Made by a program: the position numbers and the translations under genes. A model generated the notes under the pieces. That model searched no databases. It worked only from the letters and a program-made list of their open reading frames with translations, and had not been told where the DNA came from. A stretch of 64,000 nucleotides of DNA from Phocaeicola plebeius (GTDB lineage Bacteria; Bacteroidota; Bacteroidia; Bacteroidales; Bacteroidaceae): positions 16,840 to 80,839 of the forward strand of contig JALEPZ010000034.1 of assembly GCA_022767125.1 (NCBI GenBank). Reading direction: 5' to 3'. Shown here piece after piece: positions 29,220 to 47,007 of this stretch (position 1 is its first letter; each line of letters begins with the position of its first letter).

Positions 29220-30512
29220 ATGACTTCACAGTTTCTTATTGGAGCAGCCTCATCGGGAAGCGGCAAAACCACTTTCACGATGGGGCTGCTGCGTGCCTTG
29301 AAGAACCGGGGATGCCGCCTCCAGCCGTTCAAGAGCGGCCCCGATTACATCGACCCCCTGTTTCACACGCAGGCCTCGGGACAGGAGTCGGTCAACCTGG
29401 ATGTGTGGATGTCCTCCCCTAACCATGTGCGCACGCTTTATGCCACTTACGGGGCCGGTACGGATGTCTGTGTGGTGGAAGGTGTGATGGGACTTTTCGA
29501 CGGCTATGCCCGGTGGGAGGGCAGTAGCGGCGCACTGGCCGCCTTGCTCAGCATCCCAGTCATCCTGCTGGTCAACGCCCGTTCGGCAGCCTACTCGGTC
29601 GCCCCCCTCATCAACGGCTTTGCCCATTTCCAGCCCGATGTACGGGTGGCGGGAGTGGTATTCAACCGAGTGGCTTCACCGACTCATTTTCAACACTTGA
29701 AAGAAGCCTGCGGCGATATCGGAGTGGACTGTTTCGGCTACCTGCCCCAGTCGCCCGACATCCAAGTGCCTTCACGCCACCTGGGACTGTCCTTGGAGGC
29801 CCGCCAAGAAAGGGAAAAGCAGATAGCCTTGGCCGCCGACCTGATTGAACGCCATGTCGACATCGACCGGCTGCTGGCAGCCAGTCACCTCCCCCTCCCT
29901 GTCTGTGCACCCGTCCCGACTGTCCAGGGGACGCTACGTGTGGCAGTGGCCCGCGACGATGCCTTCAATTTCATCTACCACGAGAATCTGGTGCAACTGC
30001 ACCGACTGGGAGAAGTAAACTTCTTCAGTCCGCTACGCGGCGACCGGCTGCCTTCCGCCGACCTGGTTTACCTGCCTGGCGGCTATCCGGAACTGTTTGC
30101 CCCTGTTCTGTCGGCTCGACAGGACACCCTGAACGACCTGAAGGACTATGCCGAACAAGGCGGACGACTGCTGGCCGAATGCGGGGGGATGATGTACCTC
30201 TCCCAATCCATCACCGATGCCGACGGCGGGCGGTCTTATCCCATGGCTGCCGTGCTGCCCTTCGACTGTACCATGGCTCATGCCCGCCTGCACCTAGGCT
30301 ACCGTCGCCTGGTCATCGACGGCAGCGAGTGGAGAGGACACGAGTTCCACTACTCAGACATCGTACAGCCCGACGCACTGCCCTCCATCGCAGGACAGTT
30401 CAACGGAAAGGGCGTCCCCGTCACTACTTCCCTTTACCGAATCAAGAATGTTATTGCCGGCTACACCCACTTATACTGGGGAGACCGGAATATTTTGGAA
30501 CTATGGAACTGA
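29220..30512 (+). CDS. cbiA: Cobyrinate a,c-diamide synthase
   Basis: SSGSGKTT, FKSGPDYID, VVEGVMGLFDG, GATase AECGGMMYL and GHEFHYS. Confidence 0.95.
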   Translation: MTSQFLIGAASSGSGKTTFTMGLLRALKNRGCRLQPFKSGPDYIDPLFHTQASGQESVNLDVWMSSPNHVRTLYATYGAGTDVCVVEGVMGLFDGYARWEGSSGALAALLSIPVILLVNARSAAYSVAPLINGFAHFQPDVRVAGVVFNRVASPTHFQHLKEACGDIGVDCFGYLPQSPDIQVPSRHLGLSLEARQEREKQIALAADLIERHVDIDRLLAASHLPLPVCAPVPTVQGTLRVAVARDDAFNFIYHENLVQLHRLGEVNFFSPLRGDRLPSADLVYLPGGYPELFAPVLSARQDTLNDLKDYAEQGGRLLAECGGMMYLSQSITDADGGRSYPMAAVLPFDCTMAHARLHLGYRRLVIDGSEWRGHEFHYSDIVQPDALPSIAGQFNGKGVPVTTSLYRIKNVIAGYTHLYWGDRNILELWN

Positions 30513-30529
30513 CAACAGAAAAATACCTC

Positions 30530-31696
30530 ATGAAACGACTCGGCCACGTGTTGAAGGCCACCGCTTACTGCGCTGCCCTGCTTCTGCTGGCCGATTGCTC
30601 GAGCAAGCCCCGTCAGCAGGCGATCGACACAAGCGATGCCCCGGCCGAAGTGGCATTTGTCGAACCCATCATACCGGCCTACGCCGAAGGATTCCACGTG
30701 CACTATACAGACAGTTGCTGCCTATTAGAAATTGCCGACCCCCAGCTGGAACAGCGGCGGATGTTCCGTTACGCTCTGGTGCCCCGGGGCTGCCGTTCAG
30801 CACACCTGCCCGAAGGCTATACTCCCATCGAAGTACCTGTGCGCAGTGTCATCTGCATGACCTCGCTCCAGCTCTCCAACTTTATCAAGCTGGACGAACT
30901 GCAGCGCGTGACCGGCATCACGAGTACCCGCCATCTTTTCAACGCCACCATCCGTGAGCAACTGGCGGCAGGCAAGACCCACAAGATTGGCATCGAGGGC
31001 AATTTCGACAATGAAGTCATCCTTGGCATCCATCCCGATGTCATCCTGATTTCCCCCTTTAAGCGGGGAGGCTATGATGCACTCCGCGAGGTAGGTATTC
31101 CGCTGATACCCCATCTGGGCTACAAGGAAACCAGTCCGTTGGGACAGGCCGAATGGGTGAAGTTCGTCGGCCTGCTCACGGGGACGGAAGAAAAAGCCAA
31201 CCGCATCTTTGCGGATATCGAAAAGCGGTACCTCTACTGGAAAGAACTGGCGGCCCACGTCACGGAACGCCCGACGGTGTTCAGCGGCGACATGCGAGGC
31301 GGCAACTGGTATGCTGCAGGCGGACGGAGCTTCCTGGCCCGGCTGTTCGAAGACGCAGGAGCCGACTATTTCCTAAAGGACAATCCACAATCGGGCGGTG
31401 TCACCTTCGACTTCGAAACCGTCTATGAACAAGCCGCCACCGCCCGCTACTGGCGCATTGTGAACAGCTATCCGGACACCTATTCGTACGACCAGCTGAA
31501 AGCAGAAGACGCCCGATATGCCGACTTCCGGGCCTTCCGGGAAAAAGGAGTGATCTATTGCAACATGACCCAGAAGCCCTATTACGAAAGCATGCCGGTG
31601 GAACCCGACTGCATCCTGGCCGACCTAATCCACGTGTTCCATCCAGAACTGATGCCAGCTGATTACGAACCTGCCTATTACGACCTGCTGCGATGA
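30530..31696 (+). CDS. btuF: ABC substrate-binding lipoprotein (BtuF/FecB-like)
   Basis: Periplasmic-binding protein type 2 motifs (VICMTSLQL, LGQAEWVKF). Start MKRLGH at 30530. Confidence 0.85.
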   Translation: MKRLGHVLKATAYCAALLLLADCSSKPRQQAIDTSDAPAEVAFVEPIIPAYAEGFHVHYTDSCCLLEIADPQLEQRRMFRYALVPRGCRSAHLPEGYTPIEVPVRSVICMTSLQLSNFIKLDELQRVTGITSTRHLFNATIREQLAAGKTHKIGIEGNFDNEVILGIHPDVILISPFKRGGYDALREVGIPLIPHLGYKETSPLGQAEWVKFVGLLTGTEEKANRIFADIEKRYLYWKELAAHVTERPTVFSGDMRGGNWYAAGGRSFLARLFEDAGADYFLKDNPQSGGVTFDFETVYEQAATARYWRIVNSYPDTYSYDQLKAEDARYADFRAFREKGVIYCNMTQKPYYESMPVEPDCILADLIHVFHPELMPADYEPAYYDLLR

Positions 31697-32733
31697 AACC
31701 ATCTGTCTTTCTCCCCATGTGGCTACTGGCAGGAGCTGTCGTCCTGTTATTCCTGCTCAACCTGTCTCTCGGCTCTGTCTCCATCCCCCTGCGCTCCATC
31801 TGGAACATCCTTTGGGGCATGGACGGAAATGAGTCTTTCATCTGGCACAACATCATCTGGAAGTCGCGGATGCCCCAGGCCCTGACTGCCACCATGGCCG
31901 GAGCGGGCCTGTCGGTCAGCGGCCTGCAAATGCAGACCGTCTTCCGTAACCCCCTGGCCGGTCCGTCCGTCCTAGGTGTCAGTTCGGGAGCCAGTCTGGG
32001 CGTAGCCTTCGTTGTCCTCCTTTCGGGCAGTCTGGGAGGTAGAGCCCTCAGCCAGCTGGGTGCCATGGGAGAAGTAGCCCTGACGCTGGCCGCCATCGGC
32101 GGCGCACTGGCCGTCATGGCCCTCATCGTCTATGCCTCCCAGAAAGTGCACGGCCATGTCACCCTTCTCATCATCGGTGTCATGATTGGCTACGTGGCCA
32201 ATGCCGTCATCGGTGTCCTGAAGTTCTTCAGTGTAGAGGAAGACATCCGCGCCTATGTCATCTGGGGATTGGGCAGCTTCGCCCGTGTATCGGGCAACCA
32301 GGTCACCATCTTTGTGTGCATCATGGCCGTCCTCCTCCCCCTCTCTTTCCTGCTGGCCAAGACCCTGAATCTGTTACTGCTGGGCGATGCGTATGCCCGC
32401 AATCTCGGGCTAAACATCCGTCAGGCACGGCTGTGGGTCATCGGCTGTTCGGGCATACTGGTGGCCATCGTCACCGCCTACTGCGGTCCCATCGCCTTTC
32501 TTGGGCTGGCCGTTCCCCATCTCTGTCGGAACATCTTCCGCACCTCCGACCATCGGGTGTTGCTGCCAGCCTCCCTGCTGACCGGCAGTGCCCTGGCCCT
32601 GATTTGCCACCTCATTGCCCGTCTGCCGGGCTTCGAAGGCGCCCTGCCCGTCAATTCGGTCACCGCCCTCGTCGGAGCACCGGTTGTCGTATCCGTCTTG
32701 TTCAAGAAACGCCGTAACGATTGGAGTGAATGA
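31693..32733 (+). CDS. btuC: ABC permease (BtuC/FecCD)
   Basis: RMPQAL, FRNPLAGPSVLG, GPIAFLGLAVPH. Confidence 0.9.
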   Translation: MKPSVFLPMWLLAGAVVLLFLLNLSLGSVSIPLRSIWNILWGMDGNESFIWHNIIWKSRMPQALTATMAGAGLSVSGLQMQTVFRNPLAGPSVLGVSSGASLGVAFVVLLSGSLGGRALSQLGAMGEVALTLAAIGGALAVMALIVYASQKVHGHVTLLIIGVMIGYVANAVIGVLKFFSVEEDIRAYVIWGLGSFARVSGNQVTIFVCIMAVLLPLSFLLAKTLNLLLLGDAYARNLGLNIRQARLWVIGCSGILVAIVTAYCGPIAFLGLAVPHLCRNIFRTSDHRVLLPASLLTGSALALICHLIARLPGFEGALPVNSVTALVGAPVVVSVLFKKRRNDWSE

Positions 32734-33752
32734 TGATGAAGAAAGAAGAAACCATCCGCCTGAAACACCTGTCCACCGGTTATGCGGGCCGAAAAGGTCC
32801 CAAGATTATTGCGGCGGACATCAATGCCACCCTCTGCAGTGGCGAACTGACCTGCCTCATCGGGGCGAACGGTGCCGGGAAATCGACCCTGTTGCGGACA
32901 CTCTCGGCCTTCCTTCCCCCTTTAGCCGGAGAGGTCTGGCTACTGGGCCGCCGCCTGGAAGACTATACCGACAAACAACTAGCCAAAGTCATCGGGGTAG
33001 TGCTGACCGAGAAGTGCCACCTGCGTAACATGTCGGTAGCCGACCTCATCGGTATGGGGCGCAGTCCCTACACCGGCTTTTGGGGAAGTTTCCGGCCAGA
33101 AGACTACCGCATCGTTGAAGAAGCCCTCCGCCTGGTGGGCATCGAGGCCTTGAAAGAACGTAAGGTGGAGACTCTCAGCGATGGCGAACGGCAAAAAGTC
33201 ATGATTGCCAAGGCACTGGCACAAGAAACGCCGATTATCTTCCTCGACGAACCGACCGCCTACCTCGACTATCCAAGCAAGGTGGATATCCTGCACCTGC
33301 TCCATCGCCTATCGCGGGAGATGAACAAGACCATCTTCCTCTCGACACACGACCTGGAACTGGCGCTGCAGATTGCCGACCAGCTGTGGCTAATGGACCG
33401 CCAGCAAGGAATTTGGACCGGGACACCGGAAGACCTGGCCCTGGACGGACGACTCGACGGGTTCTTCCAGGCTCGTGGCATCGTCTTCGACAGTAACACC
33501 GGTCTCTACCGCATGGACCAAGCCTATACGGAAGAAGTGCGGCTGGAAGGCACCGGATGTCGGGCGGCAATGGTGCAGAAGGCCCTACGCCGTAACGGCA
33601 TCCGTGCCCACAGCGAGGCCCGCTCGACCTGCTGCATCCGGACCGGTGAAGGCACGGATTTCCAACTACTGGACCACGAAGGGCGCGTGACCACCGTCCG
33701 TACCATCCGTGAACTGATAACGACGGTGGAAAATCTACTGAAACAACCATGA
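32730..33752 (+). CDS. btuD: ABC ATPase (BtuD/FecE-like) with C-terminal extension
   Basis: GANGAGKST, LSDGERQK, FLDEPT, STHD. Confidence 0.9.
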   Translation: MMMKKEETIRLKHLSTGYAGRKGPKIIAADINATLCSGELTCLIGANGAGKSTLLRTLSAFLPPLAGEVWLLGRRLEDYTDKQLAKVIGVVLTEKCHLRNMSVADLIGMGRSPYTGFWGSFRPEDYRIVEEALRLVGIEALKERKVETLSDGERQKVMIAKALAQETPIIFLDEPTAYLDYPSKVDILHLLHRLSREMNKTIFLSTHDLELALQIADQLWLMDRQQGIWTGTPEDLALDGRLDGFFQARGIVFDSNTGLYRMDQAYTEEVRLEGTGCRAAMVQKALRRNGIRAHSEARSTCCIRTGEGTDFQLLDHEGRVTTVRTIRELITTVENLLKQP

Positions 33753-34261
33753 AACGCCTACTACTGATTACCGGCGGAGCCCGCTCCGGAAAGAGTGCCT
33801 ACGCCGAACGGACAGCCCTCTCTCTGTCACCGAACCCCATCTACCTGGCTACCGCCCGCATCTGGGATGAAGAATTCCGGAAACGGGTGGAACGCCACCG
33901 GCAGGCCCGAGGACCGGAGTGGACCAACATCGAGGAAGAAAAAGAACTGGGCCGCCACTGTGTGGAAGGACGGGTAGTCCTGGTAGACTGCCTCACACTG
34001 TGGTGCACCAACTTCTTCTTTGACCTGAATGCTGACATCGACCGCGCTTTTCAGGAACTCCGACAGGAATTCGACCGGCTGACGGCCCAAGAGGCCACAT
34101 TCGTGTTCGTGACCAACGAAATCGGTCTCGGAGGAACCTCGGAAAACGAAATGCAGCGGAAATTCACCGACCTGCAGGGATGGATGAACCAGTATGTGGC
34201 GGCCAGGGCCGACGAAGTCGTACTGATGGTGTCGGGCATCCCAGTCCGTATCAAAGGGTAA
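33749..34261 (+). CDS. cobU: Adenosylcobinamide kinase / phosphate guanylyltransferase
   Basis: GGARSGKSAYAE, VDCLTLW, VTNEIGLG. Confidence 0.96.
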   Translation: MKRLLLITGGARSGKSAYAERTALSLSPNPIYLATARIWDEEFRKRVERHRQARGPEWTNIEEEKELGRHCVEGRVVLVDCLTLWCTNFFFDLNADIDRAFQELRQEFDRLTAQEATFVFVTNEIGLGGTSENEMQRKFTDLQGWMNQYVAARADEVVLMVSGIPVRIKG

Positions 34262-34308: not shown

Positions 34309-35352
34309 ATGAACATGAAAACATTCCACATCGATCAGCCGGACGAACAACTCCGCCCTGCGCTCATTGACAAAATCAACAACCTAACCAAGCCGAAAGG
34401 CTCGTTGGGACGACTCGAAGAACTGGCCTTGCAAATCGGCATGATCCAACAGACCCTCTCTCCCTGCCTCACTCGGCCACAGAACATCATTTTCGCTGCC
34501 GACCACGGCATCGTGGAAGAAGGGGTCAGCCTGTCTCCCAAGGAAATCACCTGGCAACAGATCAGCAACTTCCTCCACGGAGGAGCCGGGGTCAACTTCC
34601 TGTGCCGGCAACACGGTTTCGAGCTGAAAATCGTGGATGCCGGTGTCGACTACGAACTGCCTTATGAAAAGGGCATTATCAACCGGAAGGTACGGAGGGG
34701 TACCCGCAACTATCTGCACGAGGCTGCCATGACACAAGAAGAACTGGAACAGTGTATCGACTCCGGCGCCGAAATGGTTCGCCAGTGCCACGACGACGGC
34801 AGCAACGTGATCAGCTTCGGCGAAATGGGTATCGGCAACACCTCCTCTTCCTCAATCTGGATGAGCTGTCTGGCAGGTATTCCCTTGGAAGAATGCGTAG
34901 GAGCCGGCAGCGGGCTGGACCACAAAGGAATCCGCCACAAGTATGAAGTGCTCCGCCACGCATTGGATAACTACTCGGGCACGAGCGAGCCGATCGATAT
35001 CCTCCGCTATTTCGGCGGACTGGAGATGGTCATGGCCGTAGGAGCCATGCTGCAGGCAGCCGAACTCCGGATGGTGATTCTGGTGGACGGCTTCATCATG
35101 ACCAACTGTATGCTGGCAGCCAGCCGGCTCTATCCCGCCGTGACCGACTATGCCGTTTTCTGTCATTGCGGCGACGAGGCGGGCCACCGCCGGGTGCTCG
35201 ACGCCCTTCATGCCCATCCGCTGTTGGATCTCGGCCTGCGCCTGGGCGAAGGGACAGGAGCCATCTGTGCCTACCCCATCATCGATTCAGCCGTCCGGAT
35301 GATCAACGAGATGGATACTTTTGCCGGGGCAGCTATCACTAAATACTTCTGA
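34309..35352 (+). CDS. cobT: Nicotinate-nucleotide--dimethylbenzimidazole phosphoribosyltransferase
   Basis: [37 protein letters not shown]. Confidence 0.96.
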
Positions 35353-35355
35353 CCC

Positions 35356-36102
35356 ATGGACCTGCTGGCTGCCCTGATTTTCTTCACCCGCCTTCCCCTG
35401 TGGAAATGGAAGGCGGTACCGGCTGAGTGCTTCAAGCACGTGGTTCCCTACTGGCCACTCGTGGGCTGGCTGACGGGCGGCACCCTGAGTGCCGTCGTGT
35501 ATGCCGCCGCTCAGATTTTCCCACTGCCCGTCGCCTGGCTGCTGGCCCTGACGGTCCGCCTCCTGCTCACAGGATGTCTCCACGAAGATGGGCTAGCCGA
35601 CTTTCTCGACGGGTTCGGGGGAGGGACAACCCGCGAGCGGACGCTGGCTATCATGAAAGACTCGCACATCGGCACTTACGGAGTCATCGGGCTGGTGGTC
35701 TACTTCCTCCTGCTCTGGCAGGTGGGCAGCTACCTCCCGCTGTCAGTCCTTGCCCCACTTTCGGTATGCGCCGACTGCTGGTCCAAAGCGGCCAGTGCCC
35801 AGCTGGTAAACTTCCTGCCCTATGCTCGCACGGAATCGGAAAGCAAGGCGAAGGTGGTGTATAGCCGGATGCGGCCTACAGAAGGAGGCTTGGTCCTCCT
35901 CGGCGGTGGACTGCCGGTACTTCTGCTGCTCCCCAGTTCGTGCTGGATAGCCCTCCTCGCCCCATGGGGAATCGTAGCGATTCTCATCCGACTTATGAAA
36001 CGGCGGATCGGCGGCTATACCGGCGATTGCTGCGGAGCGACGTTCCTGCTCAGCGAACTCAGTTTTTACCTTGTCTGCGGCGGTCTGCTACTCTGTTTCT
36101 AA
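35356..36102 (+). CDS. cobS: Cobamide synthase
   Basis: FFTRLP, HEDGLADFLDG, IMKDSHIG, GGYTGD. Confidence 0.95.
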   Translation: MDLLAALIFFTRLPLWKWKAVPAECFKHVVPYWPLVGWLTGGTLSAVVYAAAQIFPLPVAWLLALTVRLLLTGCLHEDGLADFLDGFGGGTTRERTLAIMKDSHIGTYGVIGLVVYFLLLWQVGSYLPLSVLAPLSVCADCWSKAASAQLVNFLPYARTESESKAKVVYSRMRPTEGGLVLLGGGLPVLLLLPSSCWIALLAPWGIVAILIRLMKRRIGGYTGDCCGATFLLSELSFYLVCGGLLLCF

Positions 36103-36145: not shown

Positions 36146-36676
36146 ATGGAATTAGTACTCATCCGACACACCTCGGTAGATGTTCCACCCGGCGTATGCT
36201 ACGGCCAGACAGATGTCCCCTTGAAGGATAGTTTCGAGAACGAAGCGGCACACACCCAGCTGTTACTGCAGCCCTACACTCCTTTCGATGCCGTATACAC
36301 CAGTCCGCTGACCCGCTGCACCCGACTGGCTGAACGATGCGGCTATCCGACAGCCCAGCACGACAAGCGACTGTTGGAACTGGATTTCGGAGAATGGGAA
36401 ATGCAGGCTTTCGATGCCATCCGCGACCCACGCCTACAGGAGTGGTATGACGACTATCTGCACGTAGCCCCCACCGGAGGCGAGTCCTTCCAACAGCAAT
36501 ATGCACGTGTCAGCCACTTTTTGGAAGAGCTGAGGGGGAAGTCTTTCCGCCGGGCAGCCGTCTTTGCCCACGGAGGGGTACTGCTCTGTGCCCGGCTTTA
36601 CGTAGGGGAACTCACCCCCGACCAACTGTTCGGTTCACTCACGCCCTACGGAGGAGTGGTCTGTCTCCAGCTATAG
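36146..36676 (+). CDS. cobC: Alpha-ribazole phosphatase (histidine phosphatase)
   Basis: LIRHT, YTSPLTRC, LLELDFGEWE, FAHGG. ATG at 36146. Confidence 0.93.
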   Translation: MELVLIRHTSVDVPPGVCYGQTDVPLKDSFENEAAHTQLLLQPYTPFDAVYTSPLTRCTRLAERCGYPTAQHDKRLLELDFGEWEMQAFDAIRDPRLQEWYDDYLHVAPTGGESFQQQYARVSHFLEELRGKSFRRAAVFAHGGVLLCARLYVGELTPDQLFGSLTPYGGVVCLQL

Positions 36677-37597
36677 AAGCCAGACTGCTAGACCAACCAG
36701 CACCAGCATCAGGAACTCCGCCCGTCGGGTGACACGGATGGCCACCCGCATATCAGCAAGCCCCAGCCGTCGGTCGGTCGTTCCGATGAACGGTTTCCAC
36801 ACCACCTCCCCGAAGTAAGAATGAGGACCTCCGAAACGGCAGTTGAGAATACCAGCCATCGCCGCCTCGGGATAGCCAGAATTGGGGCTGGCATGGCACT
36901 TGCCGTAACGGACGACAAACCGCCACCCAGACAGGAAATTCGCAGCCACCAGCAGCAGGACAGCCGTCAACCGGGCCGGCACGTAGTTGGCCACATCGTC
37001 CATCCGAGCGGCAAAACAGCCGAATTCAGCATAACGCTCGTTGCGGTAACCGATCATGGAATCCAACGTATTCACCATCTTGTAAACCATCATGCCAGGC
37101 ACTCCCAACAAGGCCCACCAGAACAGCGGGGCAACGACCCCGTCGCTCAAGTTCTCCGCCAAGGTTTCGAGGGCCGCCGTCCGCACCTCCTGAGCCGAGA
37201 GTTCTGAGGTGTCTCGGCCGACAATGCGGGCCACCTGCCGTCGGCCTTCCTCCAACGAACGATCAACGGCGAAAAACACTTCCCGCACTTCCCGCACCAA
37301 TGTCGTACCGGCCAGACAGTAGAAAGTCAGTACCACCTGCAGCGCCAAAGACAACCCAAAGGAAACGAGACTAGCCAAGACCAGTATGCCCCCGACAGCC
37401 AGTCCTGTGCCCACTACCAATGAAATGGCCAGTACCGCCCCTTTCCAGCGGCGTCCCTTTCCCCTGTTCCAGGCATGTTCTCCCCTCGCAATGAGCCGGC
37501 CGAATCCCACCACAGGATGTGGCAGACCAACGGGATCGCCCAACCAGCGGTCGAGCAACCCGGCCAACAACAGTGTTATCAGTCGTTCCATAGACAT
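36671..37597 (-). CDS. cbiB: Adenosylcobinamide-phosphate synthase
   Basis: LGDP..LPHPV, ETLAENLSDG, VNTLDSMIGY, SPNSGYPEAA. Confidence 0.96.
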   Translation of the reverse strand: MSMERLITLLLAGLLDRWLGDPVGLPHPVVGFGRLIARGEHAWNRGKGRRWKGAVLAISLVVGTGLAVGGILVLASLVSFGLSLALQVVLTFYCLAGTTLVREVREVFFAVDRSLEEGRRQVARIVGRDTSELSAQEVRTAALETLAENLSDGVVAPLFWWALLGVPGMMVYKMVNTLDSMIGYRNERYAEFGCFAARMDDVANYVPARLTAVLLLVAANFLSGWRFVVRYGKCHASPNSGYPEAAMAGILNCRFGGPHSYFGEVVWKPFIGTTDRRLGLADMRVAIRVTRRAEFLMLVLVGLAVWLL

Positions 37598-37603: not shown

Positions 37604-38635
37604 CTATATTTCCAGCCATTGGGCGATGGCCGCCACCAGGCGGTCGTTCTCCTCAGGCCGCTGTGTGGAGATTCGAAAAAAGCAATCGTCCAGTCCCTCG
37701 AAGTTCGATGCATCCCGAATCAGTAGACCATGCTCTTTCGCTAGATAGTCTTTCAAGGCCGCTGCCCGCCCCACCCGCAAGCGAGCCAGCTGGAAGTGCG
37801 TCTGCGTGTCCCAAACCTCCACGGCACCTAGTTTCTCCAACTGCAGCCGCAATCGGCGAGTCTCGCGCAGGTAAGGCTCCACCTCCATCGGTGCCTCTTC
37901 CGGATGGTCCAACAAATAGATACCGGCTTGAATGGCCAACTGATTGACCGACCAGGGCATCCGGTTGGCCCGCAACCGTTTCAGCAAGGAAGGGACTCCC
38001 GTCACATAACCCAGACGCAGACCGGGAACCGCATAGCGCTTCGTCAACGAATGAAGGAGCAACACATTCGGGAAAGCTGCCGCCTCCGCCGGACTCCATA
38101 AACGTTCCAGCGTAAAGGCTTCATAAGACTGGTCAATGACGAAGCACACCTGAGGATTCCGTTCCACCACGCGCTTCAGGATTTCCCGGTCCGTCACCAG
38201 CCCTGTAGGATTGTTGGGATTGCACAGCCTCAACATCCCAACCCCTTCCGGCAGGCGGTACCGCTCGCGGGAGCCGGGCAACGCATACAAGGTCTTCACC
38301 GTGTGAGCATGCATCCGGCAGGCATCGGCATACTCGCTGAAGGTCGGCTGTACAACCGCTGAACCGCTGCCGCGGAAGGTCTGCGCCAGCAGATAGATAG
38401 CCTCCGTCGCCCCATTGGTCACACAAACGCCCCCCTTCGGCAGACGAAAACGGTCTGCCAGCCGGTCCTCCAATGTATACGGTTCCGGTTCGGGATAGGA
38501 ACCGAGGGTGTCTAAGCAGGCCCGCAAGTGGGCCTTCAGTCCGCTCAGATCGATGTCCGGACAGACATTCGAACTGAAATTGGCCGTAATGGCCGTGTCA
38601 TACGCATATGCGTCGTCTCCGTGTCCGTTAATCAT
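37604..38635 (-). CDS. cobD: L-threonine-O-3-phosphate decarboxylase
   Basis: GHGDD, NFSSN, CNPNNPTG, SLTKRYAVPGLRLGY. Confidence 0.92.
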   Translation of the reverse strand: MINGHGDDAYAYDTAITANFSSNVCPDIDLSGLKAHLRACLDTLGSYPEPEPYTLEDRLADRFRLPKGGVCVTNGATEAIYLLAQTFRGSGSAVVQPTFSEYADACRMHAHTVKTLYALPGSRERYRLPEGVGMLRLCNPNNPTGLVTDREILKRVVERNPQVCFVIDQSYEAFTLERLWSPAEAAAFPNVLLLHSLTKRYAVPGLRLGYVTGVPSLLKRLRANRMPWSVNQLAIQAGIYLLDHPEEAPMEVEPYLRETRRLRLQLEKLGAVEVWDTQTHFQLARLRVGRAAALKDYLAKEHGLLIRDASNFEGLDDCFFRISTQRPEENDRLVAAIAQWLEI

Positions 38636-40136
38636 GATTGTTGGTCTTCAGTATTTCGTACAGCAAAGGCAAGTTCACGTACTTCCGCACGTGATCGGCC
38701 AATTTGTCGTACTGTTGTTCCTTAAATTGGTGGTAATCGAAGCAGGATGCCGCTGCCGACAGTTTCGCTCGATGCGGCTCCAGCAGGAAGTCCACGAAGG
38801 CAGGATTGTCCAGGATGCCGTGGATATAAGTCCCCATGCAACCCGTTCCGGCCCAGCAGCCTTCGTCGGTGCCGTCAGCCAACCTGTTCAGCGGCAGCGC
38901 CTGTACGCCCGGCCGACGCTCCGTTTTCCCCATGTGGATTTCATACCCCTCCATCATGGTCTCATCACGTCCATGCAGCGTGAAACGGACTTGCCGCGTC
39001 ACCTTGTCACCTTGCATCTCGGTCGCCACCGGCAGCAAGCCCAGACCAGGCAGGCTCTCCTGCTCCCCTTCCAAGTGATTCGGATCGCTCACCCATTCCC
39101 CCATCAGCTGATAGCCGCCACAGATGCCCATCACAGTCGCCCCCTTCCGGCGGGCGCGGACAATGGCCTGGGCCACCCCGTTGCGACGAATGTCGTGCAA
39201 ATCGTCAAGGGTACTCTTCGTTCCCGGTAGCAGGATGATGTCTGCCTGTGCCAGCTCGTCCACATTGTTAGTATAGAACAAGTGAAGCCGCTCGTCGCGT
39301 TCCAGCACATTGAAGTCGGTGAAGTTGCTCATATGGCGCAGCAACACCACGGCCACGTTCACCTTCCCCTGTTCGGCCCGATACGCTTTGGCCGCCAGGG
39401 CCACCGAATCCTCCTCCTCAATGTGGATATCCTTGAAATACGGAATGACCCCCAGTACAGGAATTCCGCACAGTTCTTCCAGCTGCTTCACCCCCGACTC
39501 GAAAAGACGAAGGTCGCCGCGGAATTTGTTAATGAGGATGCCTTTCACCCGTTTCCGCTCCTCAGGACGTAGCAGGAGAAGCGACCCGTAGACACTGGCA
39601 AAGACTCCTCCCCGGTCGATGTCCCCCACCAGCAGCACATCGGCTCCGGCATGCATCGCCATGGGCAAGTTCACCAAGTCAGTGTCGCGAAGATTGATTT
39701 CTGCCAGGCTCCCTGCCCCCTCCAGTACGATGGGATGATAGCGGGCCGCCAGCCGGTCGTAGGCCGCACAGACCGCCTGCCACAACTCTTCCCGACCTTC
39801 GCGACGGAAATAGTCATACGCACTCCGGTTTCCGATGGGACGTCCGTTCAATACCACCTGGGACGTATGGTCGCTCTGTGGTTTCAGCAACAAGGGGTTC
39901 ATGTCCGTGTGACAAGGAATGCCGGCCGCTTCGGCCTGCACAGCCTGTGCCCTACCGATTTCCAGTCCCTCGGGCGTGGCAAACGAATTCAAGGCCATGT
40001 TCTGGGCCTTGAAAGGGGCAGGATGGTAGCCATCTTGCCGGAAGATGCGACAGAAGGCAGCGGCCAGCACACTCTTGCCCACGTCGCTGCCCGTCCCCGC
40101 CAGCATCAGCGGATGGAGTTGTCTGTTCTTGTTCAT
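38628..40136 (-). CDS. cobQ: Cobyric acid synthase (CobQ/CbiP)
   Basis: GTGSDVGKS, PFKAQNM, LEGAGS, GICGGYQ, GTYIHG. True start MNKNRQ at 40136. Confidence 0.96.
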   Translation of the reverse strand: MNKNRQLHPLMLAGTGSDVGKSVLAAAFCRIFRQDGYHPAPFKAQNMALNSFATPEGLEIGRAQAVQAEAAGIPCHTDMNPLLLKPQSDHTSQVVLNGRPIGNRSAYDYFRREGREELWQAVCAAYDRLAARYHPIVLEGAGSLAEINLRDTDLVNLPMAMHAGADVLLVGDIDRGGVFASVYGSLLLLRPEERKRVKGILINKFRGDLRLFESGVKQLEELCGIPVLGVIPYFKDIHIEEEDSVALAAKAYRAEQGKVNVAVVLLRHMSNFTDFNVLERDERLHLFYTNNVDELAQADIILLPGTKSTLDDLHDIRRNGVAQAIVRARRKGATVMGICGGYQLMGEWVSDPNHLEGEQESLPGLGLLPVATEMQGDKVTRQVRFTLHGRDETMMEGYEIHMGKTERRPGVQALPLNRLADGTDEGCWAGTGCMGTYIHGILDNPAFVDFLLEPHRAKLSAAASCFDYHQFKEQQYDKLADHVRKYVNLPLLYEILKTNNHD

Positions 40137-40702
40137 AGATTTCGTCGATAGGAAAAAGACTGCCAACGCTCCTCCTGCCGGTCGGCCTGCCACAGCGCGT
40201 GACGGGCCAAGACGAAAAAGAGGTCGGACAGCCGGTTCAAATAGCGTAACACGAGTTCGGGAACAGGATCTTGCCGGTGGAGGGTCCAGAGCCGCCGTTC
40301 GGCCCGACGGGCCACAGTACGGGCCATGTGCAGGTGAGCCGCCATGGGTGTTCCTCCGGGCAGCAGGAAATGGGCCGACTCGCCCATCTCGGCAGTCAGT
40401 CTGTCCATTGTAACTTCGCAGTCCTCTACCCACCCCTCCTCCAGCCGGTTGGGATGGCCGTTGCGCAAGGAAGAAGGAGTGGCCACCTGGCTCATCACGG
40501 CCATCAGCCGCAGCTGCACCTCACGCAACAGCGACTGCCAGTCATGGCTGTCGGGCAGCAGGGAGCGGACCACGCCCACCACCGCATTCAGCTCGTCCAG
40601 ACAGCCGTTCGCTTCGATGCGGATGTCATCCTTCGGCACCCGCCCGCCCCCGGCCACACGGGTCATCCCCCGGTCGCCGCTTCGTGTATAAATTCGTTTC
40701 AT
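40133..40702 (-). CDS. PduO-type ATP:corrinoid adenosyltransferase
   Basis: IYTRSGDRG, DELN, ARTVARRAER, LNRLSDLFF. ATG at 40702. Confidence 0.95.
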   Translation of the reverse strand: MKRIYTRSGDRGMTRVAGGGRVPKDDIRIEANGCLDELNAVVGVVRSLLPDSHDWQSLLREVQLRLMAVMSQVATPSSLRNGHPNRLEEGWVEDCEVTMDRLTAEMGESAHFLLPGGTPMAAHLHMARTVARRAERRLWTLHRQDPVPELVLRYLNRLSDLFFVLARHALWQADRQEERWQSFSYRRNL

Positions 40703-40813: not shown

Positions 40814-42226
40814 ATGGACAATCCAAGGTTGGTCGTGGCCGGCATAGGGCCGGGCAGCGCAAACGACATCACGCCGGCTGTAATCCAGGCGGTACAGAAC
40901 AGCGAGGTAATCATCGGTTACCACTATTATTTCCAGTTCATCGAACCCTTCCTGCAGCCTGGCACCCGCTGCATCGACACGGGCATGCGGCGCGAGCGCG
41001 ACCGAGCCCGACAGGCTTTCGAACTGGCCGAACAGGGACAGCGGGTCTGTATCATCAGTTCGGGTGATGCCGGCATCTACGGCATGGCACCGCTGATATT
41101 CGAGATGAAACGGGAGCGCAACAGTCCAGTGGAGATTGAGGTATTACCCGGCATCAGTGCCTTCCAGAAGGCAGCCGCCCTTCTCGGCGCTCCGTTGGGA
41201 CACGACTGCTGCCTGATATCCCTCTCTGACCTACTCACGCCCTGGGGCACCATCGAGAAACGCATCCGGGCCGCTGCCTCGGCCGACTTCGTCACGGCGG
41301 TCTACAATCCCAAGAGTGAAGGGCGCTACTGGCAGCTCTACCGGCTGAAGGAGCTGTTCCTGGAGGAACGCGACCCGAAGACACCGGTGGGCTATGTGAA
41401 ACAGGCAGGACGACCTGACGAACAGACCGTGGTGACCACTCTGGCCGACTTCGACCCCGAACAGGTGGATATGTTCACCATCGTCCTCATCGGCAATTCC
41501 CAGTCGTATGCACCCGGCGGCCCGGTCATCGTGACCCCACGCGGCTACTACTCGGCACCAGAAGCCGAATCCGGCACCGGTATCGGGCAGGGAATCATGA
41601 TGAACAGCTTCCGCACCATCGAGCAGGAGCTGCATCACCCTGACTTACCCCTTGGAAAGAAATGGGCCTTACTCCATGCCATCCATACCACTGCCGACTT
41701 CGAGATGGAACGCTGGCTACACGTTGACGACGGTGCCGTAGAAACCCTCTACCGTGCCTGTGCCGAAGGCCGCATCCGCCACATCATCACCGATGTAACC
41801 ATGGCTGCAGCCGGCATCCGCAAGGGGGCCCTCCAACGATTGGGCATCCATGCGGAATGCTACCTGGGCGACGAACGGGTGGCACAACTGGCCTGCGACA
41901 AACACATTACCCGCACCCAGGCCGGTATCCGCCTGGCAGTAGAAGAACATCCCGAGGCCCTCTATGTATTCGGCAACGCCCCCACCGCCCTGATGGAACT
42001 CTGCGACCTGATACGCAAGGGCAAGGCTCATCCTGCCGGCATCATTGCCGCCCCAGTAGGGTTCGTCCATGTCTGCGAGAGCAAGCATCAAGTGAAACCA
42101 TTCACCCACATTCCCAAACTGATTGTCGAAGGGCGGAAAGGCGGCAGCAACCTGGCTGCCACACTGGTCAATGCCATCCTCTGCTTCGATGATGCAGCAA
42201 CACTCAAACCTGGACGCGATGTGTAA
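40814..42226 (+). CDS. cbiH: CbiH (C17-methyltransferase)-CbiC (methylmutase) fusion
   Basis: GIGPG, ISSGDAGIYGM, ISLSDLLTPW; C-half IHTTADF, FGNAPTAL, GRKGGS. Confidence 0.94.
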   Translation: MDNPRLVVAGIGPGSANDITPAVIQAVQNSEVIIGYHYYFQFIEPFLQPGTRCIDTGMRRERDRARQAFELAEQGQRVCIISSGDAGIYGMAPLIFEMKRERNSPVEIEVLPGISAFQKAAALLGAPLGHDCCLISLSDLLTPWGTIEKRIRAAASADFVTAVYNPKSEGRYWQLYRLKELFLEERDPKTPVGYVKQAGRPDEQTVVTTLADFDPEQVDMFTIVLIGNSQSYAPGGPVIVTPRGYYSAPEAESGTGIGQGIMMNSFRTIEQELHHPDLPLGKKWALLHAIHTTADFEMERWLHVDDGAVETLYRACAEGRIRHIITDVTMAAAGIRKGALQRLGIHAECYLGDERVAQLACDKHITRTQAGIRLAVEEHPEALYVFGNAPTALMELCDLIRKGKAHPAGIIAAPVGFVHVCESKHQVKPFTHIPKLIVEGRKGGSNLAATLVNAILCFDDAATLKPGRDV

Positions 42227-43406
42227 GCAGACCTTTTATGTCATCGGAATGACCGACGGCCAGGAAACGTCGTTCCCGGATGAAGTCCGCGAACGGCTGG
42301 CGCAAGGGAAGGTTTTCTCAGGCGGTAAGCGCCACCGCGAGATCGTAAGTCCGCTGCTACCGGAAGGGGTCTCATGGATTGACATTACCGTGCCCCTCGA
42401 CAGCGTGTTCGCCCAATATGAAGGTCATCCCGAGATTGTGGTCTTCGCTTCGGGTGACCCCCTGTTCTATGGATTCGCCGCTACCCTCCAGCGGCGGATG
42501 CCCGAAGCACGGCTGGTGGTCTACCCTACCTTCCATTCGCTACAGCTTCTGGCCCACCGCCTCCTGCTGCCGTATCAAGACTTACATCCAGTGTCACTGA
42601 CCGGCCGTCCCTGGAACGAGCTGGACGAAGCCCTCATTAGCGGCGAACGCCTCATCGGAGTGTTGACCGACCGCCGCAAGACCCCGGCAGCCATTGCCCG
42701 GCGACTGCTCGACTATGGCTACGACAACTACCGGATGCTTCTCGGCGAACGGCTGGGCCATGCCGCCAAAGAACGGGTGCGCAAACTGCAACTTTCTGAA
42801 GCGGCAACGGCAGAGACCGATTTTCCCAACTGTCTCCTGCTGGAGCGAACGGCCCTCCGACCCCGCCCTTTCGGACTGCCCGAAAGCGAGTTCCACCTGC
42901 TGGACGGACGGGTAAACATGATTACCAAGATGCCTATCCGCCTGTTGACCCTCAGCCAGCTGGACCTGCGCCACCGGCACACGTTCTGGGACATCGGCTT
43001 CTGCACCGGCTCAGTATCCATCGAAGCCAAATTGCAGTTCCCCCACCTGCAGATCGTGGCATTTGAGCAGCGCGAGGAAGGACGGGAACTGATAGAGCAG
43101 AATGCCCGGAAATTCGGGACACCGGGCATCCAAGCCCTCATCGGTGACTTTCTGGAGGCCAACCTCTCTGAGTTGCCCCGTCCCGAAGCTGTCTTCATCG
43201 GCGGCCACGGGGGACGGCTGGCTGACCTCCTCCGACGGGTGGACGAAGCCCTGCTGCCAGGCGGGGTCATCGTTTTCAATTCCGTCAGTGCCGACAGCCT
43301 CCGTCTGTTCGAGGAAAGCCTGGTTCCCCTCCACCGCCGCGTCACCCGCCGACTGGCTGTGACCGTCGATTCGTTTAACCCTATAACCATTCTTAAAGCT
43401 GAATGA
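42219..43406 (+). CDS. cbiE: CbiE-CbiT fusion
   Basis: FASGDPLFYG; TKMPIR, WDIGFCTGSVSIE, FIGGHGG. ATG at 42219. Confidence 0.93.
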   Translation: MCKQTFYVIGMTDGQETSFPDEVRERLAQGKVFSGGKRHREIVSPLLPEGVSWIDITVPLDSVFAQYEGHPEIVVFASGDPLFYGFAATLQRRMPEARLVVYPTFHSLQLLAHRLLLPYQDLHPVSLTGRPWNELDEALISGERLIGVLTDRRKTPAAIARRLLDYGYDNYRMLLGERLGHAAKERVRKLQLSEAATAETDFPNCLLLERTALRPRPFGLPESEFHLLDGRVNMITKMPIRLLTLSQLDLRHRHTFWDIGFCTGSVSIEAKLQFPHLQIVAFEQREEGRELIEQNARKFGTPGIQALIGDFLEANLSELPRPEAVFIGGHGGRLADLLRRVDEALLPGGVIVFNSVSADSLRLFEESLVPLHRRVTRRLAVTVDSFNPITILKAE

Positions 43407-45223
43407 TTGCTATCCTGTTGATTTCTGAATCGGCCCTTCCCCTGGCCGAAACCTTACGGCGTGAGCTGGCCGACACGGTCTTCTATTCCCACAAGGAATT
43501 GCCGGGCTGCACCGCCGTCCCTTCATTCTCCCGTTGGCTCTCCGACCATGTCCAGGAGTATTCTGCCATTGTCTTCATCGGTGCCTTGGGCATCTGTGTG
43601 CGGACCATCATCCCTTGCCTGCACAACAAGTACACCGATCCGGCCGTGGTCTGTGTGGACACCACCGGACGCTACGCCATCCCGGTTCTTTCGGGTCATA
43701 TCGGCGGAGCCAACGAACTGAGCCGCCGCATTGCCGCCCTGTTTGGCGGGGAAGCTGTCGTGACCACCCAAAGCGACAACATGGGACTATGGGCCCTCGA
43801 TACCCTGGCCCGACAGTATGGCTGGCAGACCGATGCCACCCGGGCCCACATGAACCGCTGCATTTTCCTCTTTGTCGGCCAACGGCCCACAGCCCTGCTG
43901 CTGGAAGTGCGCGACCGGGGAACAGCGGAGCTTGAAAGAAACCTGCCGGCTCATGTCCGGGTGTTTTACCGCCTTGCGGACATCCCACAGGATGAATTCG
44001 AACTGCTGATTGCCGTCACCCCCTTCCTACCTGTTCCAGGCGAAGTACATCTGCCGGTCCTCTACTATTACCCCCCAGTGCTCCACCTCGGCATGGGCTG
44101 CAAGAAGCAGTGCCGCCCCGACGGAGTGGCCGACTACATCTCTGGGCAGCTGAAGGACCACCGGCTCGCTCCGCAGTCTGTCGCTTCCATCAGCACCATC
44201 ACCCTGAAACAGAACGAGCCGCTTCTCCATGCCCTTCACGATACCTGGCCCCAATCGCGCCTTCATGTCTATCCCGCGGAAGAATTGGCCGATATCGAGG
44301 TGCCCCATCCTTCAGAACAAGCCTTCCGGGTGACGGGACTCTACGGCGTGGCCGAAGCAGCTGCTCTGAAGAGCGGAAAGGAAGGTCCGCTACTCATCGA
44401 CAAACAGAAAGGCTGCCTATACGAGGGACATTACTTCACTTTCGCTGTCTGCCTCGACCGCCCTGCATCGCGCTGCGGACACATCGAGATTGTGGGAGCC
44501 GGACCCGGTGACCCCGAACTGATATCGATACGAGGCCGCCGTTTCCTCGAACAGGCCGACCTTATTCTCTATGCCGGCAGCTTGGTACCCGTCGAACTGA
44601 CTGCCTGTGCCAAGAACGGAGCCACGGTGCGTAGTTCCGCCTCCCTCACCCTGGAAGAGCAGTTCGAACTGATGAAGTCGTTCTACGACCAGGGCCTTCT
44701 GGTGGTGCGCCTCCACACGGGTGACCCCTGTATCTACGGGGCCATTCAGGAGCAGATGGCCTTCTTCGACCGCCACCACATGAGTTACCACATCACCCCC
44801 GGCATTTCCTCGTTCCAAGCTGCTGCTGCTGCTCTCCGCTCGCAGTTCACCATTCCCGAAAAGGTACAGACCATCATCCTGACCCGCGGCGAGGGTCGGA
44901 CCCCCATGCCGGAAAAAGAACAGCTCCACCTGCTGGCCCGCTCGCAAAGTACCCTGTGCATCTACCTGAGTGCCGGCATCGTGGAAAAGGTGCAGGAAGA
45001 ACTGCTGCAAGCCTATCCGCCCGAGACACCGGTGGCCGCCTGCTACAAGCTGACCTGGAAAGAGGAACGCATCTACCGAGGACAGCTGAAGGACCTGGCT
45101 CGCCTTGTTCGCGACAACAAACTGACTCTGACCACTTTGCTTGTAGTGGGCGAAGCCATCGATAACCGCCGAGGACTATCACGGCTCTATGCCCACGATT
45201 TCCATCACTTGTACCGGCCATGA
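43403..45223 (+). CDS. cbiG: CbiG-CbiF fusion
   Basis: K..DPAVV, LSGHIGGAN, GVAEAAAL; C-half GAGPGDPELI, RLHTGDP. Confidence 0.93.
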   Translation: MIAILLISESALPLAETLRRELADTVFYSHKELPGCTAVPSFSRWLSDHVQEYSAIVFIGALGICVRTIIPCLHNKYTDPAVVCVDTTGRYAIPVLSGHIGGANELSRRIAALFGGEAVVTTQSDNMGLWALDTLARQYGWQTDATRAHMNRCIFLFVGQRPTALLLEVRDRGTAELERNLPAHVRVFYRLADIPQDEFELLIAVTPFLPVPGEVHLPVLYYYPPVLHLGMGCKKQCRPDGVADYISGQLKDHRLAPQSVASISTITLKQNEPLLHALHDTWPQSRLHVYPAEELADIEVPHPSEQAFRVTGLYGVAEAAALKSGKEGPLLIDKQKGCLYEGHYFTFAVCLDRPASRCGHIEIVGAGPGDPELISIRGRRFLEQADLILYAGSLVPVELTACAKNGATVRSSASLTLEEQFELMKSFYDQGLLVVRLHTGDPCIYGAIQEQMAFFDRHHMSYHITPGISSFQAAAAALRSQFTIPEKVQTIILTRGEGRTPMPEKEQLHLLARSQSTLCIYLSAGIVEKVQEELLQAYPPETPVAACYKLTWKEERIYRGQLKDLARLVRDNKLTLTTLLVVGEAIDNRRGLSRLYAHDFHHLYRP

Positions 45224-47007
45224 TACTTATATTAGGAGGAACCACCGAAGGACGGCTGGCAGTGAGGGTGGCCGATGAAGCCGGTTCGCCCTATTTCTAC
45301 TCAACGAAAGGACACGAACAACAGGTGACCTGCCGGAACGGGACGCACCTGACAGGCGGCATGGACGGGGCGGCCCTGACGGAATGCTGCCGCACCCACG
45401 GCATCCGGCTGCTAGTGGACGCAGCCCATCCCTTTGCCACCGAGCTTCACCGCCATGTGGCCGAAGCAGCCCGGCAACTGCACCTGCCCGTCGTACGCAT
45501 CGAACGGCAGTACCCATCCCGTTCGTCGGACATCGTGTGGTGTGACGACTACGACGATGCCCTGCACCGTCTGGAACAAGACGGTATCAGCCGCTTACTT
45601 GCCCTTACCGGTGTACAGACCATCGGCCGCCTGCGCCCGTACTGGCAACACCACACCTGCTGGTTCCGCATCCTGCCCCGTCCCTCTTCGATGGCACTGG
45701 CGCAGGAACAGGGATTCGACAAATGCAATCTGGTATTCTATCAGGTTAACGACGAAGAGCGGTTGGTGCAGCAGCTGTCGCCCGATGCCCTTCTGACCAA
45801 AGAGAGCGGCGAATCGGGCGGATTTGCGGCAAAGGTAACCGCAGCCCGTGCCGCCGGCATCCCCATCTATGCCGTAAAACGCCCTCCCCTGCCCGACGGC
45901 TTCCACCTCGTCACGGGTGAACATGGGTTGCGCAAGGCCATTGAACAGGCTGTTCCGGGATTCTTTCCCCTACGCAGCGGCTTCACCACAGGAGCCTGTG
46001 CCACGGCGGCCACCAAGGCGGCCCTGCTGGCTTTGCTGGGGCAGACGGTCGGTGAGGAAGTCACCATCACCCTGCCCGACGGCGAACACATTGCCCTCCC
46101 CCTCCACGAAGTGACACGGGCGGACGATGCCGCCACTGCCGCTGTCCGGAAGGACGCAGGCGATGACCCCGACATAACAAACGGACGGCTGATTCTTTCC
46201 ACTGTCCGCTTCTCCTCCTGTCCGGGCATCCGGTTCCTGCAAGGCGAAGGCGTAGGCCGTGTCACCCTTCCCGGCCTGGGCTTGCCTGTCGGCGAACCGG
46301 CCATCAACCCTACGCCCCGACGGATGATGGAACAGGAAGTCACTGCCCTCTATCAAGGCGGGGTAGACATCACCCTCTCCATACCCGGCGGACGGGAACT
46401 GGCCTTGCGCACATTCAATCCCAAATTAGGGGTCACAGACGGACTTTCCATTATCGGTACATCGGGCATTGTCCATCCGTTCTCATCGGAAGCCTTTGTC
46501 GAGACCATCCGCCGCGAAATCGAGGTTTTCCGAGCCGTAGGCGGTGAACGGCTCGTCATCAATTCGGGAGCACGGAGCGAACGTTTCCTCCGAGACCACT
46601 ACCCCGACCTGCCGCCACAGGCTTTTGTCCACTATGGCAACTACGTCGGTGCGACGCTTCGTGCAGCAGCAGACCTAGAAGTCGGCCGGCTCACCCTGGG
46701 CATCATGATTGGCAAGGCAGTGAAACTGGCAGAAGGCCAGCTCGATACCCACAGCCGGGAACATCTCATGAACAAGGTCTTCCTGCAACAGCTGGCCGCC
46801 GACGCCAGCTGCAGCGAAGCAGCCCATACTGTTATCGAAGAACTGACCCTGGCCCGCGAGCTGTGGACCCGACTGTCGGTCGCCGACCTCGACCGGTTCC
46901 TGACAGCCCTACTGGCCGCCTGCCGCCGCTGGTGCCGCACGGTCTATCCCAAGGGCGAACTGACCCTCCTGCTGATGGACGAGGAGGGACAAATCAGATG
47001 CGGTTGA
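45220..47007 (+). CDS. cbiD: CbiJ-CbiD fusion
   Basis: LILGGTTEG, VDAAHPFA, TKESGESGG; C-half GFTTGACA, KDAGDDPD, GLSIIGTSG. Confidence 0.93.
   Translation: MILILGGTTEGRLAVRVADEAGSPYFYSTKGHEQQVTCRNGTHLTGGMDGAALTECCRTHGIRLLVDAAHPFATELHRHVAEAARQLHLPVVRIERQYPSRSSDIVWCDDYDDALHRLEQDGISRLLALTGVQTIGRLRPYWQHHTCWFRILPRPSSMALAQEQGFDKCNLVFYQVNDEERLVQQLSPDALLTKESGESGGFAAKVTAARAAGIPIYAVKRPPLPDGFHLVTGEHGLRKAIEQAVPGFFPLRSGFTTGACATAATKAALLALLGQTVGEEVTITLPDGEHIALPLHEVTRADDAATAAVRKDAGDDPDITNGRLILSTVRFSSCPGIRFLQGEGVGRVTLPGLGLPVGEPAINPTPRRMMEQEVTALYQGGVDITLSIPGGRELALRTFNPKLGVTDGLSIIGTSGIVHPFSSEAFVETIRREIEVFRAVGGERLVINSGARSERFLRDHYPDLPPQAFVHYGNYVGATLRAAADLEVGRLTLGIMIGKAVKLAEGQLDTHSREHLMNKVFLQQLAADASCSEAAHTVIEELTLARELWTRLSVADLDRFLTALLAACRRWCRTVYPKGELTLLLMDEEGQIRCG

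Follow-up and report, generated by a model that had tools for sequence, protein, structure and literature searches.

The DNA analysed here (the window; 64,000 nucleotides, G000:C75:16840-80839) comes from a metagenome-assembled genome (MAG) of Phocaeicola plebeius, which we call G000 and whose 3.12-Mb assembly is made up of 125 contigs and is 92.8% complete. It carries a cobamide (vitamin B12) biosynthesis cluster that sits uninterrupted in the middle of an 83-kb contig, and that begins with a cobalamin riboswitch immediately upstream of the gene for a TonB-dependent receptor. The cluster also encodes a lipoprotein, an ATP-binding cassette (ABC) importer, eight ring-modifying enzymes arranged as four fusion proteins (CbiH-C, CbiE-T, CbiG-F, and CbiJ-D), and a complete lower pathway (CobQ, CobD, CbiB, CobU, CobT, CobS, CobC, and an adenosyltransferase). 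The first ring enzyme present is CbiH, and most likely this lineage takes up a partly assembled cobalt ring that other microbes have made and completes B12 from it. Enzymes were called with Pfam and NCBIfam models at curated cut-offs; on this basis the ring and lower-pathway enzymes listed in a preliminary description of this DNA are indeed all present, full length, and intact. CbiC and CbiG pass by Pfam, and CbiJ by Pfam only (TIGR00715 gives 114 bits against a cut-off of 130). The same description had placed cobQ, cobD, and cbiB at 30530-33752, which proved to be the BtuFCD-like importer; these genes and pduO are located at 36671-40702 on the minus strand.

What is missing is the start of the pathway. 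Profile searches of all 125 contigs returned zero matches for the chelatases CbiK (PF06180), CbiX (PF01903), and CobN (PF02514), and family searches of the whole genome returned zero for HemB and HemC. The CbiL model (TIGR01467) matched nothing in the genome except the CbiH and CbiF domains, weakly (at most 32 bits), and a gene on contig C86; similarly, the CobA model found only the CbiH and CbiF domains and one C86 gene across the whole genome. We considered the C86 gene as a hidden, divergent CbiL or CobA and rejected it, as it is RsmI (TIGR00096, 244 bits, cut-off 168). A genome-wide census of TP-methylase domains (PF00590) gives exactly four, namely CbiF, CbiH, RsmI, and CbiE. Searching all contigs by tblastn with the CbiK, CbiL, and IhtB-like protein of a congener, “Bacteroides mediterraneensis” (G015), gave no match. 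In addition, we made hidden Markov models (HMMs) from Bacteroidales sequences (25 of CbiL and 20 of CbiK) and searched six-frame peptides of the 125 contigs with them unfiltered: the CbiL model recovered only CbiG-F (37 bits), CbiH-C (25 bits), and RsmI (14 bits), with no further candidate, and the CbiK model recovered nothing, not even fragments. The tetrapyrrole-precursor genes found to be missing are therefore those for HemB, HemC, and CobA; HemA, HemL, and SirC were not searched. Judged by its gene content, G000 is unable to make or methylate uroporphyrinogen III, to insert cobalt, or to add the C20 methyl group.

First noted for the window, the lack of any chelatase, C20-methyltransferase, or SirA/CysG thus extends to every contig. 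The suggestion that cbiK and cbiL might lie elsewhere in the genome is not supported, for neither was found on any contig and five congeners of the same clade, including a 98%-complete genome, also lack both. The reported lack of lower-ligand genes (bluB, bza) holds as well: BluB was not found in the genome, and the sole ThiC-family gene also occurs in ring-less congeners and is therefore ThiC, not Bza. Other candidates for the missing steps were examined and rejected. An orphan HemD-like gene (G000:C71:12294-12929; PF02602, 114.6 bits) falls far below the NCBIfam uroporphyrinogen-III synthase cut-offs and cannot provide those steps. A CbiK-like lipoprotein of congeners, 400 amino acids (aa) long, which we take to resemble IhtB of Porphyromonas gingivalis, is absent from G000 and adjoins a second TonB receptor where it does occur. 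The fusion proteins hold no extra domain, their lengths being the sum of the known ones. It is important to remember that the ring on which CbiH acts must already contain cobalt and be methylated at C20. At the CbiG step this carbon is expelled together with its methyl group as acetaldehyde, and CbiL therefore cannot simply be skipped.

The same absence recurs in relatives. Across 108 Phocaeicola genomes, CbiJ-D occurs in 30, CbiL in 19, and canonical CbiK (>230 bits) in 16. CobA was found in none of 24 congeners sampled and in none of 10 CbiL-less genomes; the cobalt transporter CbiM, not found in any of the 30 ring-carrying Phocaeicola genomes searched, is uninformative as a discriminator. 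A tree of four concatenated ring proteins puts G000 in one clade with its nearest relative, G064 (a MAG labelled P. plebeius), G087, G018, G070, and G075, and CbiL and CbiK are absent from all six genomes (all MAGs, with completeness in that order of 93%, 82%, 98%, 54%, 88%, and 83%). In G087 and G070 the whole pathway is a single co-directional run behind one riboswitch, from the TonB receptor to CobC (receptor, lipoprotein, CbiA, binding protein, permease, ATPase, CbiH-C, CbiE-T, CbiG-F, CbiJ-D, PduO, CobQ, CobD, CbiB, CobUTSC), and there is neither cbiK nor cbiL in these operons, nor room for either. G015 has both, with cbiL divergent and upstream of the riboswitch and cbiK directly before cbiA; here the corresponding positions are contiguous and empty.

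A wider tree of 83 clusters unites these Phocaeicola with 19 gut and rumen Bacteroidales loci in one clade (support 1.0). Within it, CbiL was found nowhere in the genomes of four rumen members (G124-G127) and nowhere within ±10 kb of the cluster in the rest; it is also absent from a fifth rumen genome, G128, which belongs to a separate clade. As a control for the detector we used an even sample of 400 Bacteroidales genomes, each at least 95% complete, in which the 27 genomes with CbiD are exactly the 27 with CbiL. CbiL is therefore not generally dispensable, and the negative result is meaningful. The statement in the preliminary description that Bacteroides cob clusters usually carry cbiK and cbiL nearby was borne out for Bacteroidales by this sample and by the clusters of relatives. 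Because the cluster is mid-contig, the operons are uninterrupted, and the absence is shared by the G000 clade and by the wider clade, it is not an assembly gap. A separate case is provided by the cultured isolate P. faecalis FXJYN30E22 (G024), which aligns with a P. vulgatus-like cluster at 80-87% nucleotide identity, the synteny stopping exactly where cbiL begins (L020:10404 vs. L045:15072-15846); by this alignment it has lost cbiL independently, through a clean deletion at the end of the operon that is apparently recent. Please note that the gene tree may differ from the species tree, and the number of independent losses is uncertain. Four of the rumen clusters without CbiL (L039:2557-3960, L040:2725-4086, L041:3798-5180, and L047:2643-4016) encode a secreted protein of ~460 aa adjoining the CobQ/CobD genes; it has a weak inosine-uridine nucleoside hydrolase domain and may process a corrinoid or the nucleotide loop.

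The ring genes that remain are well kept. All four fusions are full length and free of stops in 31 genomes. Ratios of nonsynonymous to synonymous divergence (dN/dS) were estimated by the Nei-Gojobori method, and show constraint rather than which reaction is catalysed. Between G000 and G064 the fusions give 0.038 for CbiH-C (dS 0.32), 0.079 for CbiG-F (dS 0.22), 0.132 for CbiE-T (dS 0.18), and 0.153 for CbiJ-D (dS 0.26), alongside 0.045-0.157 (dS 0.20-0.51) for the lower-pathway genes. Taken domain by domain, the same pair spans 0.031-0.171 (dS 0.13-0.40), with CbiH at 0.031 (dS 0.26), CbiC at 0.039 (dS 0.40), CbiF at 0.048 (dS 0.26), and CbiG, CbiE, CbiT, CbiJ, and CbiD at 0.12-0.17 (dS 0.13-0.30). 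Ring domains of G070 and G018 fall at 0.03-0.10 (dS about 0.5) and those of G070 and G087 at 0.01-0.13, the latter at a dS above 1, which is saturated. CbiH is among the most constrained domains (0.031, 0.073, and 0.040). Purifying selection acts on all ring domains just as it does on the lower-pathway genes, and there is no decay. The loss of cbiK and cbiL is older than all of the divergences compared, and the ring enzymes, CbiH included, have therefore kept working without CbiK or CbiL in the same genome.

Table 1. Features of the cobamide cluster and its surroundings (positions are those of the window; ORF, open reading frame; E, expect value; AF2, AlphaFold2)
Feature	Position	Strand	Evidence
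Cobalamin riboswitch heading the cluster	25094-25301	+	RF00174, 101.6 bits, E 2.9e-24
TonB-dependent outer-membrane receptor (ORF open from 25362)	25464-27845	+	Pfam Plug, TonB_dep_Rec_b-barrel, CarbopepD_reg_2; likely start Met at 25464, then signal peptide, as read from the N-terminus
Surface lipoprotein, XusB/BtuG-like beta-propeller, 440 aa	27881-29203	+	Lipobox, AF2 fold, no Pfam family
CbiA, cobyrinic acid a,c-diamide synthase	29220-30512	+	NF002204, 440 bits (cut-off 254)
BtuF-like periplasmic binding lipoprotein	30530-31696	+	Pfam Peripla_BP_2; lipoprotein signal read
FecCD-family ABC permease (BtuC-like)	31693-32733	+	PF01032, 248.6 bits
ABC ATPase (BtuD-like)	32730-33752	+	PF00005, 108 bits
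CobU	33749-34261	+	PF02283, 186.7 bits
CobT	34309-35352	+	PF02277, 447.6 bits
CobS	35356-36102	+	PF02654, 187 bits
CobC phosphatase (ORF open from 36071)	36146-36676	+	PF00300, 93.5 bits
CbiB	36671-37597	-	PF03186, 349.7 bits
CobD-type aminotransferase/decarboxylase	37604-38635	-	PF00155, 118 bits; syntenic with CobQ and CbiB in all relatives
CobQ/CbiP, cobyric acid synthase	38628-40118	-	NF001989, 611 bits (cut-off 273)
PduO-type corrinoid adenosyltransferase	40133-40702	-	PF01923, 190 bits
CbiH-CbiC fusion	40814-42226	+	CbiH TIGR01466, 317.7 bits (cut-off 246); CbiC PF02570, 211.8 bits
CbiE-CbiT fusion (true start probably near 42220)	42123-43406	+	TIGR02467, 159.7 bits (cut-off 92.9); TIGR02469, 105.9 bits (cut-off 78.3)
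CbiG-CbiF fusion	43403-45223	+	Pfam CbiG_N, CbiG_mid, CbiG_C; CbiF TIGR01465, 339 bits (cut-off 260)
CbiJ-CbiD fusion	45220-47007	+	CbiD TIGR00312, 384 bits (cut-off 200); CbiJ PF02571, 169 bits
FopS-family Bacteroidetes small RNA, downstream of the cluster	51322-51390		RF04319, 75.7 bits

The same riboswitch precedes the orthologous receptor in G064, G087, G070, and G015, and the genes that follow it in relatives, for the receptor, the lipoprotein, the importer, and every enzyme, all point the same way. G087 (L110:1105-6653) and G070 (L112:4457-6409) have another cobalamin riboswitch immediately ahead of the main operon. In G087 it is followed by the genes for a TonB receptor, a protein of 429 aa that matches no Pfam family, and a membrane protein of the PepSY_TM family, which together make an XusABC-like trio under B12 control; in G070 it heads the PepSY_TM protein. 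This second set is not in the G000 window. In the lipoprotein of the main cluster the Cys of the lipobox is followed by an acidic stretch, from which we infer surface exposure. It belongs to no Pfam family, and neither a relaxed Pfam threshold nor searching the PDB by sequence yielded anything usable; the fold search alone was informative. Its AF2 model, built with 12 orthologues (predicted local distance difference test score 82), is a beta-propeller whose best PDB matches are XusB of Bacteroides fragilis (9HQK/9HQE; E 2e-14, template modelling score 0.62-0.75) and then BtuG1/2 (8PTD/8PTF). The receptor and lipoprotein are 58% and 47% identical, respectively, to the pair heading the ring genes of G015; since G015 has cbiK and cbiL, this pair is tied to ring genes generally and not only to the truncated form. 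Similarly, the BtuF-like binding protein is orthologous to a 388-aa protein of G015. It carries ~100 residues ahead of its Peripla_BP_2 domain, and the ABC ATPase exceeds a typical BtuD by ~90 residues; congeners share both extensions. As for the use of the product, G000 encodes a 920-aa protein, most likely MetH, and a 718-aa protein, most likely methylmalonyl-CoA mutase, each with a B12-binding domain, so the organism probably uses cobamides.

With moderate confidence, we read the cluster as a late-entry corrin salvage pathway. Scarcity of cobamide would switch the operon on through the riboswitch, and the ABC system would move an imported ring to the cytoplasm. There, CbiH, F, G, D, J, T, E, and C would convert it to cobyrinic acid, and CbiA, CobQ, CobD, CbiB, PduO, and CobUTSC would then complete the cobamide, with a lower ligand that is probably a purine or a salvaged base because there is no BluB or Bza. 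The ring chemistry follows the established anaerobic pathway (PMC8123684, PMC7242693), and a pathway truncated from the top down with everything downstream intact is the signature from which precursor salvage is inferred elsewhere (PMC6593275, PMC6461909). The preliminary description had proposed that an early cobalt-tetrapyrrole such as Co-factor III is imported through the receptor upstream. Selection on the ring genes, the shared riboswitch, and the XusB/BtuG-like fold make such import the best-supported reading; the pairing of that ligand with this receptor we infer. More tentatively still, the clade may take up a ring-stage intermediate through a dedicated, riboswitch-controlled Xus/BtuG-like system, which would be the first inter-species exchange of a ring-stage B12 intermediate.

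Several points weigh against this reading. Early cobalt-precorrins are labile and mostly enzyme-bound in the organisms that make them, and our literature search found no report of their exchange between species. The receptor, lipoprotein, and binding protein could, by analogy with BtuBG and BtuFCD, carry complete cobamides or cobinamide. G000 is itself an incomplete MAG. In addition, and unexpectedly, some CbiL-less genomes keep a canonical CbiK (G125 and G126, and also G085, G100, and G041), which is hard to square with import of a ring already loaded with cobalt and methylated at C20, unless this enzyme works in the periplasm, with a metal-free trimethylated ring or some other compound as its substrate. 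The CbiK copies of G015 (L022:2546-3478) and of L030:477-1310 score 250-256 bits against PF06180 and have a clear Sec signal peptide; CbiK of this type, like CbiK-P of Desulfovibrio, is therefore probably located in the periplasm, and its usual annotation as a cytoplasmic cobaltochelatase may not be correct. Also within the genus, three complete or near-complete P. vulgatus-like genomes (G049, G123, and G057) have CbiL without a canonical CbiK: in G049 and G123 the only such protein is a CbiK-like surface lipoprotein of 408 aa adjoining a TonB receptor, and the genus search found no CbiK-family match whatever in G057.

The main rival to late entry is a hidden replacement, in which a non-homologous enzyme, or a CbiH, CbiF, or CbiE of broadened activity, carries out C20 methylation (and cobalt insertion), and the pathway starts from imported sirohydrochlorin or precorrin-2 as proposed for P. 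gingivalis. The CbiK retained in the five CbiL-less genomes fits the processing of cobalt-factor II better, and the three genomes with CbiL but no canonical CbiK mean that chelatase bookkeeping in this genus is already unorthodox. However, the four TP-methylase domains of the genome are all assigned and no fusion has room for another, and CbiL accompanies CbiD in 27 of 27 cases elsewhere in the order. Among the 22 clusters of the clade there is no recurrent unassigned family apart from the secreted nucleoside-hydrolase-like protein of the four rumen loci, which is absent from G000, G087, and G070; a conserved unknown cluster gene was accordingly rejected as the replacement enzyme. We consider a replacement unlikely. 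Slightly less likely again is an importer for late corrinoids only (cobyric acid, cobinamide, or complete cobamides), with the ring genes kept for moonlighting or for a later entry such as cobalt-precorrin-5 or -6. The lower pathway alone does suffice for the known cobinamide and cobyrinate salvage variants (PMC6593275), and BtuG is the second-best structural match of the lipoprotein. Later entry, however, predicts decay of the upstream domains, as has happened in the many Bacteroidales left with the lower pathway alone, and here constraint falls on every domain of every fusion, CbiH being among the most constrained.

Two further explanations are very improbable, and about equally so. Were the loss recent, the ring genes could be a non-functional relic not yet degraded, and the clean deletion in P. 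faecalis shows that such losses occur; the loss in the G000 clade, however, predates divergences at which dS is saturated (G070 vs. G087), yet the genes are intact with dN/dS of 0.17 or less. As for a gap in assembly or binning, a MAG in 125 contigs could in principle have cbiK, cbiL (and cobA) in its unassembled 7%. In relatives, however, these genes lie in or beside the ring cluster, which is contiguous here; the absence is shared by six independently assembled genomes of the clade and four of the wider clade, and no fragments were found.

Cobamide sharing shapes gut communities. To our knowledge, the exchanged goods established so far are only complete cobamides, cobinamide, and, for a few Firmicutes, 5-aminolevulinic acid (ALA). 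A stable, selected pathway that can be started only at CbiH implies that ring-stage cobalt intermediates occur in the pig gut and the rumen, together with a specific importer. If late-entry salvage is the true reading, it would add a new class to genome-based prediction of B12 phenotypes, in which such genomes are currently liable to be scored as producers or cobinamide salvagers; it would point to ligands for an uncharacterised Xus/BtuG-like receptor family; and it would offer a testable explanation for the retention of corrin-ring genes by haem-auxotrophic Bacteroidales, an old puzzle. The “enigma” of P. gingivalis would also become experimentally approachable, because the cultured P. faecalis shows an independent loss of cbiL.

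A literature search that included PMC6593275 and PMC6461909 found no described selected pathway entering at CbiH, and it is worthwhile setting the cluster beside the systems that are known. Like the XusAB and BtuBG pairs (9HQK, 9HQE, 8PTD, 8PTF, 8BLW), it joins a TonB-dependent receptor to a surface beta-propeller lipoprotein, with a cobalamin riboswitch as in btuBG; unlike them, its lipoprotein has ~17% identity to XusB and 11-12% to BtuG, and the pair heads a ring-biosynthesis operon. The variants Aba, Acbr, and Acbi (cobyrinate, cobyrinate-diamide, and cobinamide salvage; PMC6593275) also combine a partial pathway with BtuBFCD-type transport and salvage the corrinoids of others, but they have lost all ring-modifying enzymes, whereas G000 keeps all eight, from CbiH to CbiC. 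Cobinamide salvagers as defined in PMC6461909 have the nucleotide-loop genes and lack all or most ring genes, and here eight ring enzymes are present and constrained. Variant P1 (PMC6593275) is a complete anaerobic corrin-ring pathway, and G000 has no CbiK, CbiX, or CobN and no CbiL. The tetrapyrrole precursor salvagers share with G000 a truncated top and an intact remainder. Five types are distinguished by the precursor supplied (ALA through precorrin-2), with a complete corrin-ring set required (PMC6461909), and dependence on exogenous ALA has been verified (Shelton et al. 2019, PMC6461909). None of these enters within the ring-modification stage; lacking CbiK/X and CbiL, G000 would probably be filed outside them under the thresholds of PMC6461909.

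The remaining comparison is with P. gingivalis itself, in which Roper et al. (2000; cited in PMC6461909 and PMC6593275) showed that genes for the steps after precorrin-2 are present and those for the earlier steps are not. Such Bacteroidales have been termed precorrin-2 auxotrophs (PMC6593275); B. vulgatus and B. dorei are listed among the ring-complete genomes (PMC6593275; appendix reproduced in PMC8123684). The likeness is a fused-gene, anaerobic-type ring pathway in haem-auxotrophic Bacteroidales without HemB, HemC, and CobA, thought to be kept for salvage. The P. gingivalis type, however, retains CbiK and CbiL and can start at precorrin-2/sirohydrochlorin; congeners such as G015, with both genes, fit this type, whereas G000, with neither, does not, and its first possible substrate comes two steps later, already bearing cobalt and the C20 methyl group. 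On the late-entry reading, the cluster works like a precursor salvager shifted two steps downstream, and so goes two steps further than the precorrin-2 auxotrophs already known from Porphyromonas and elsewhere in the Bacteroidales.

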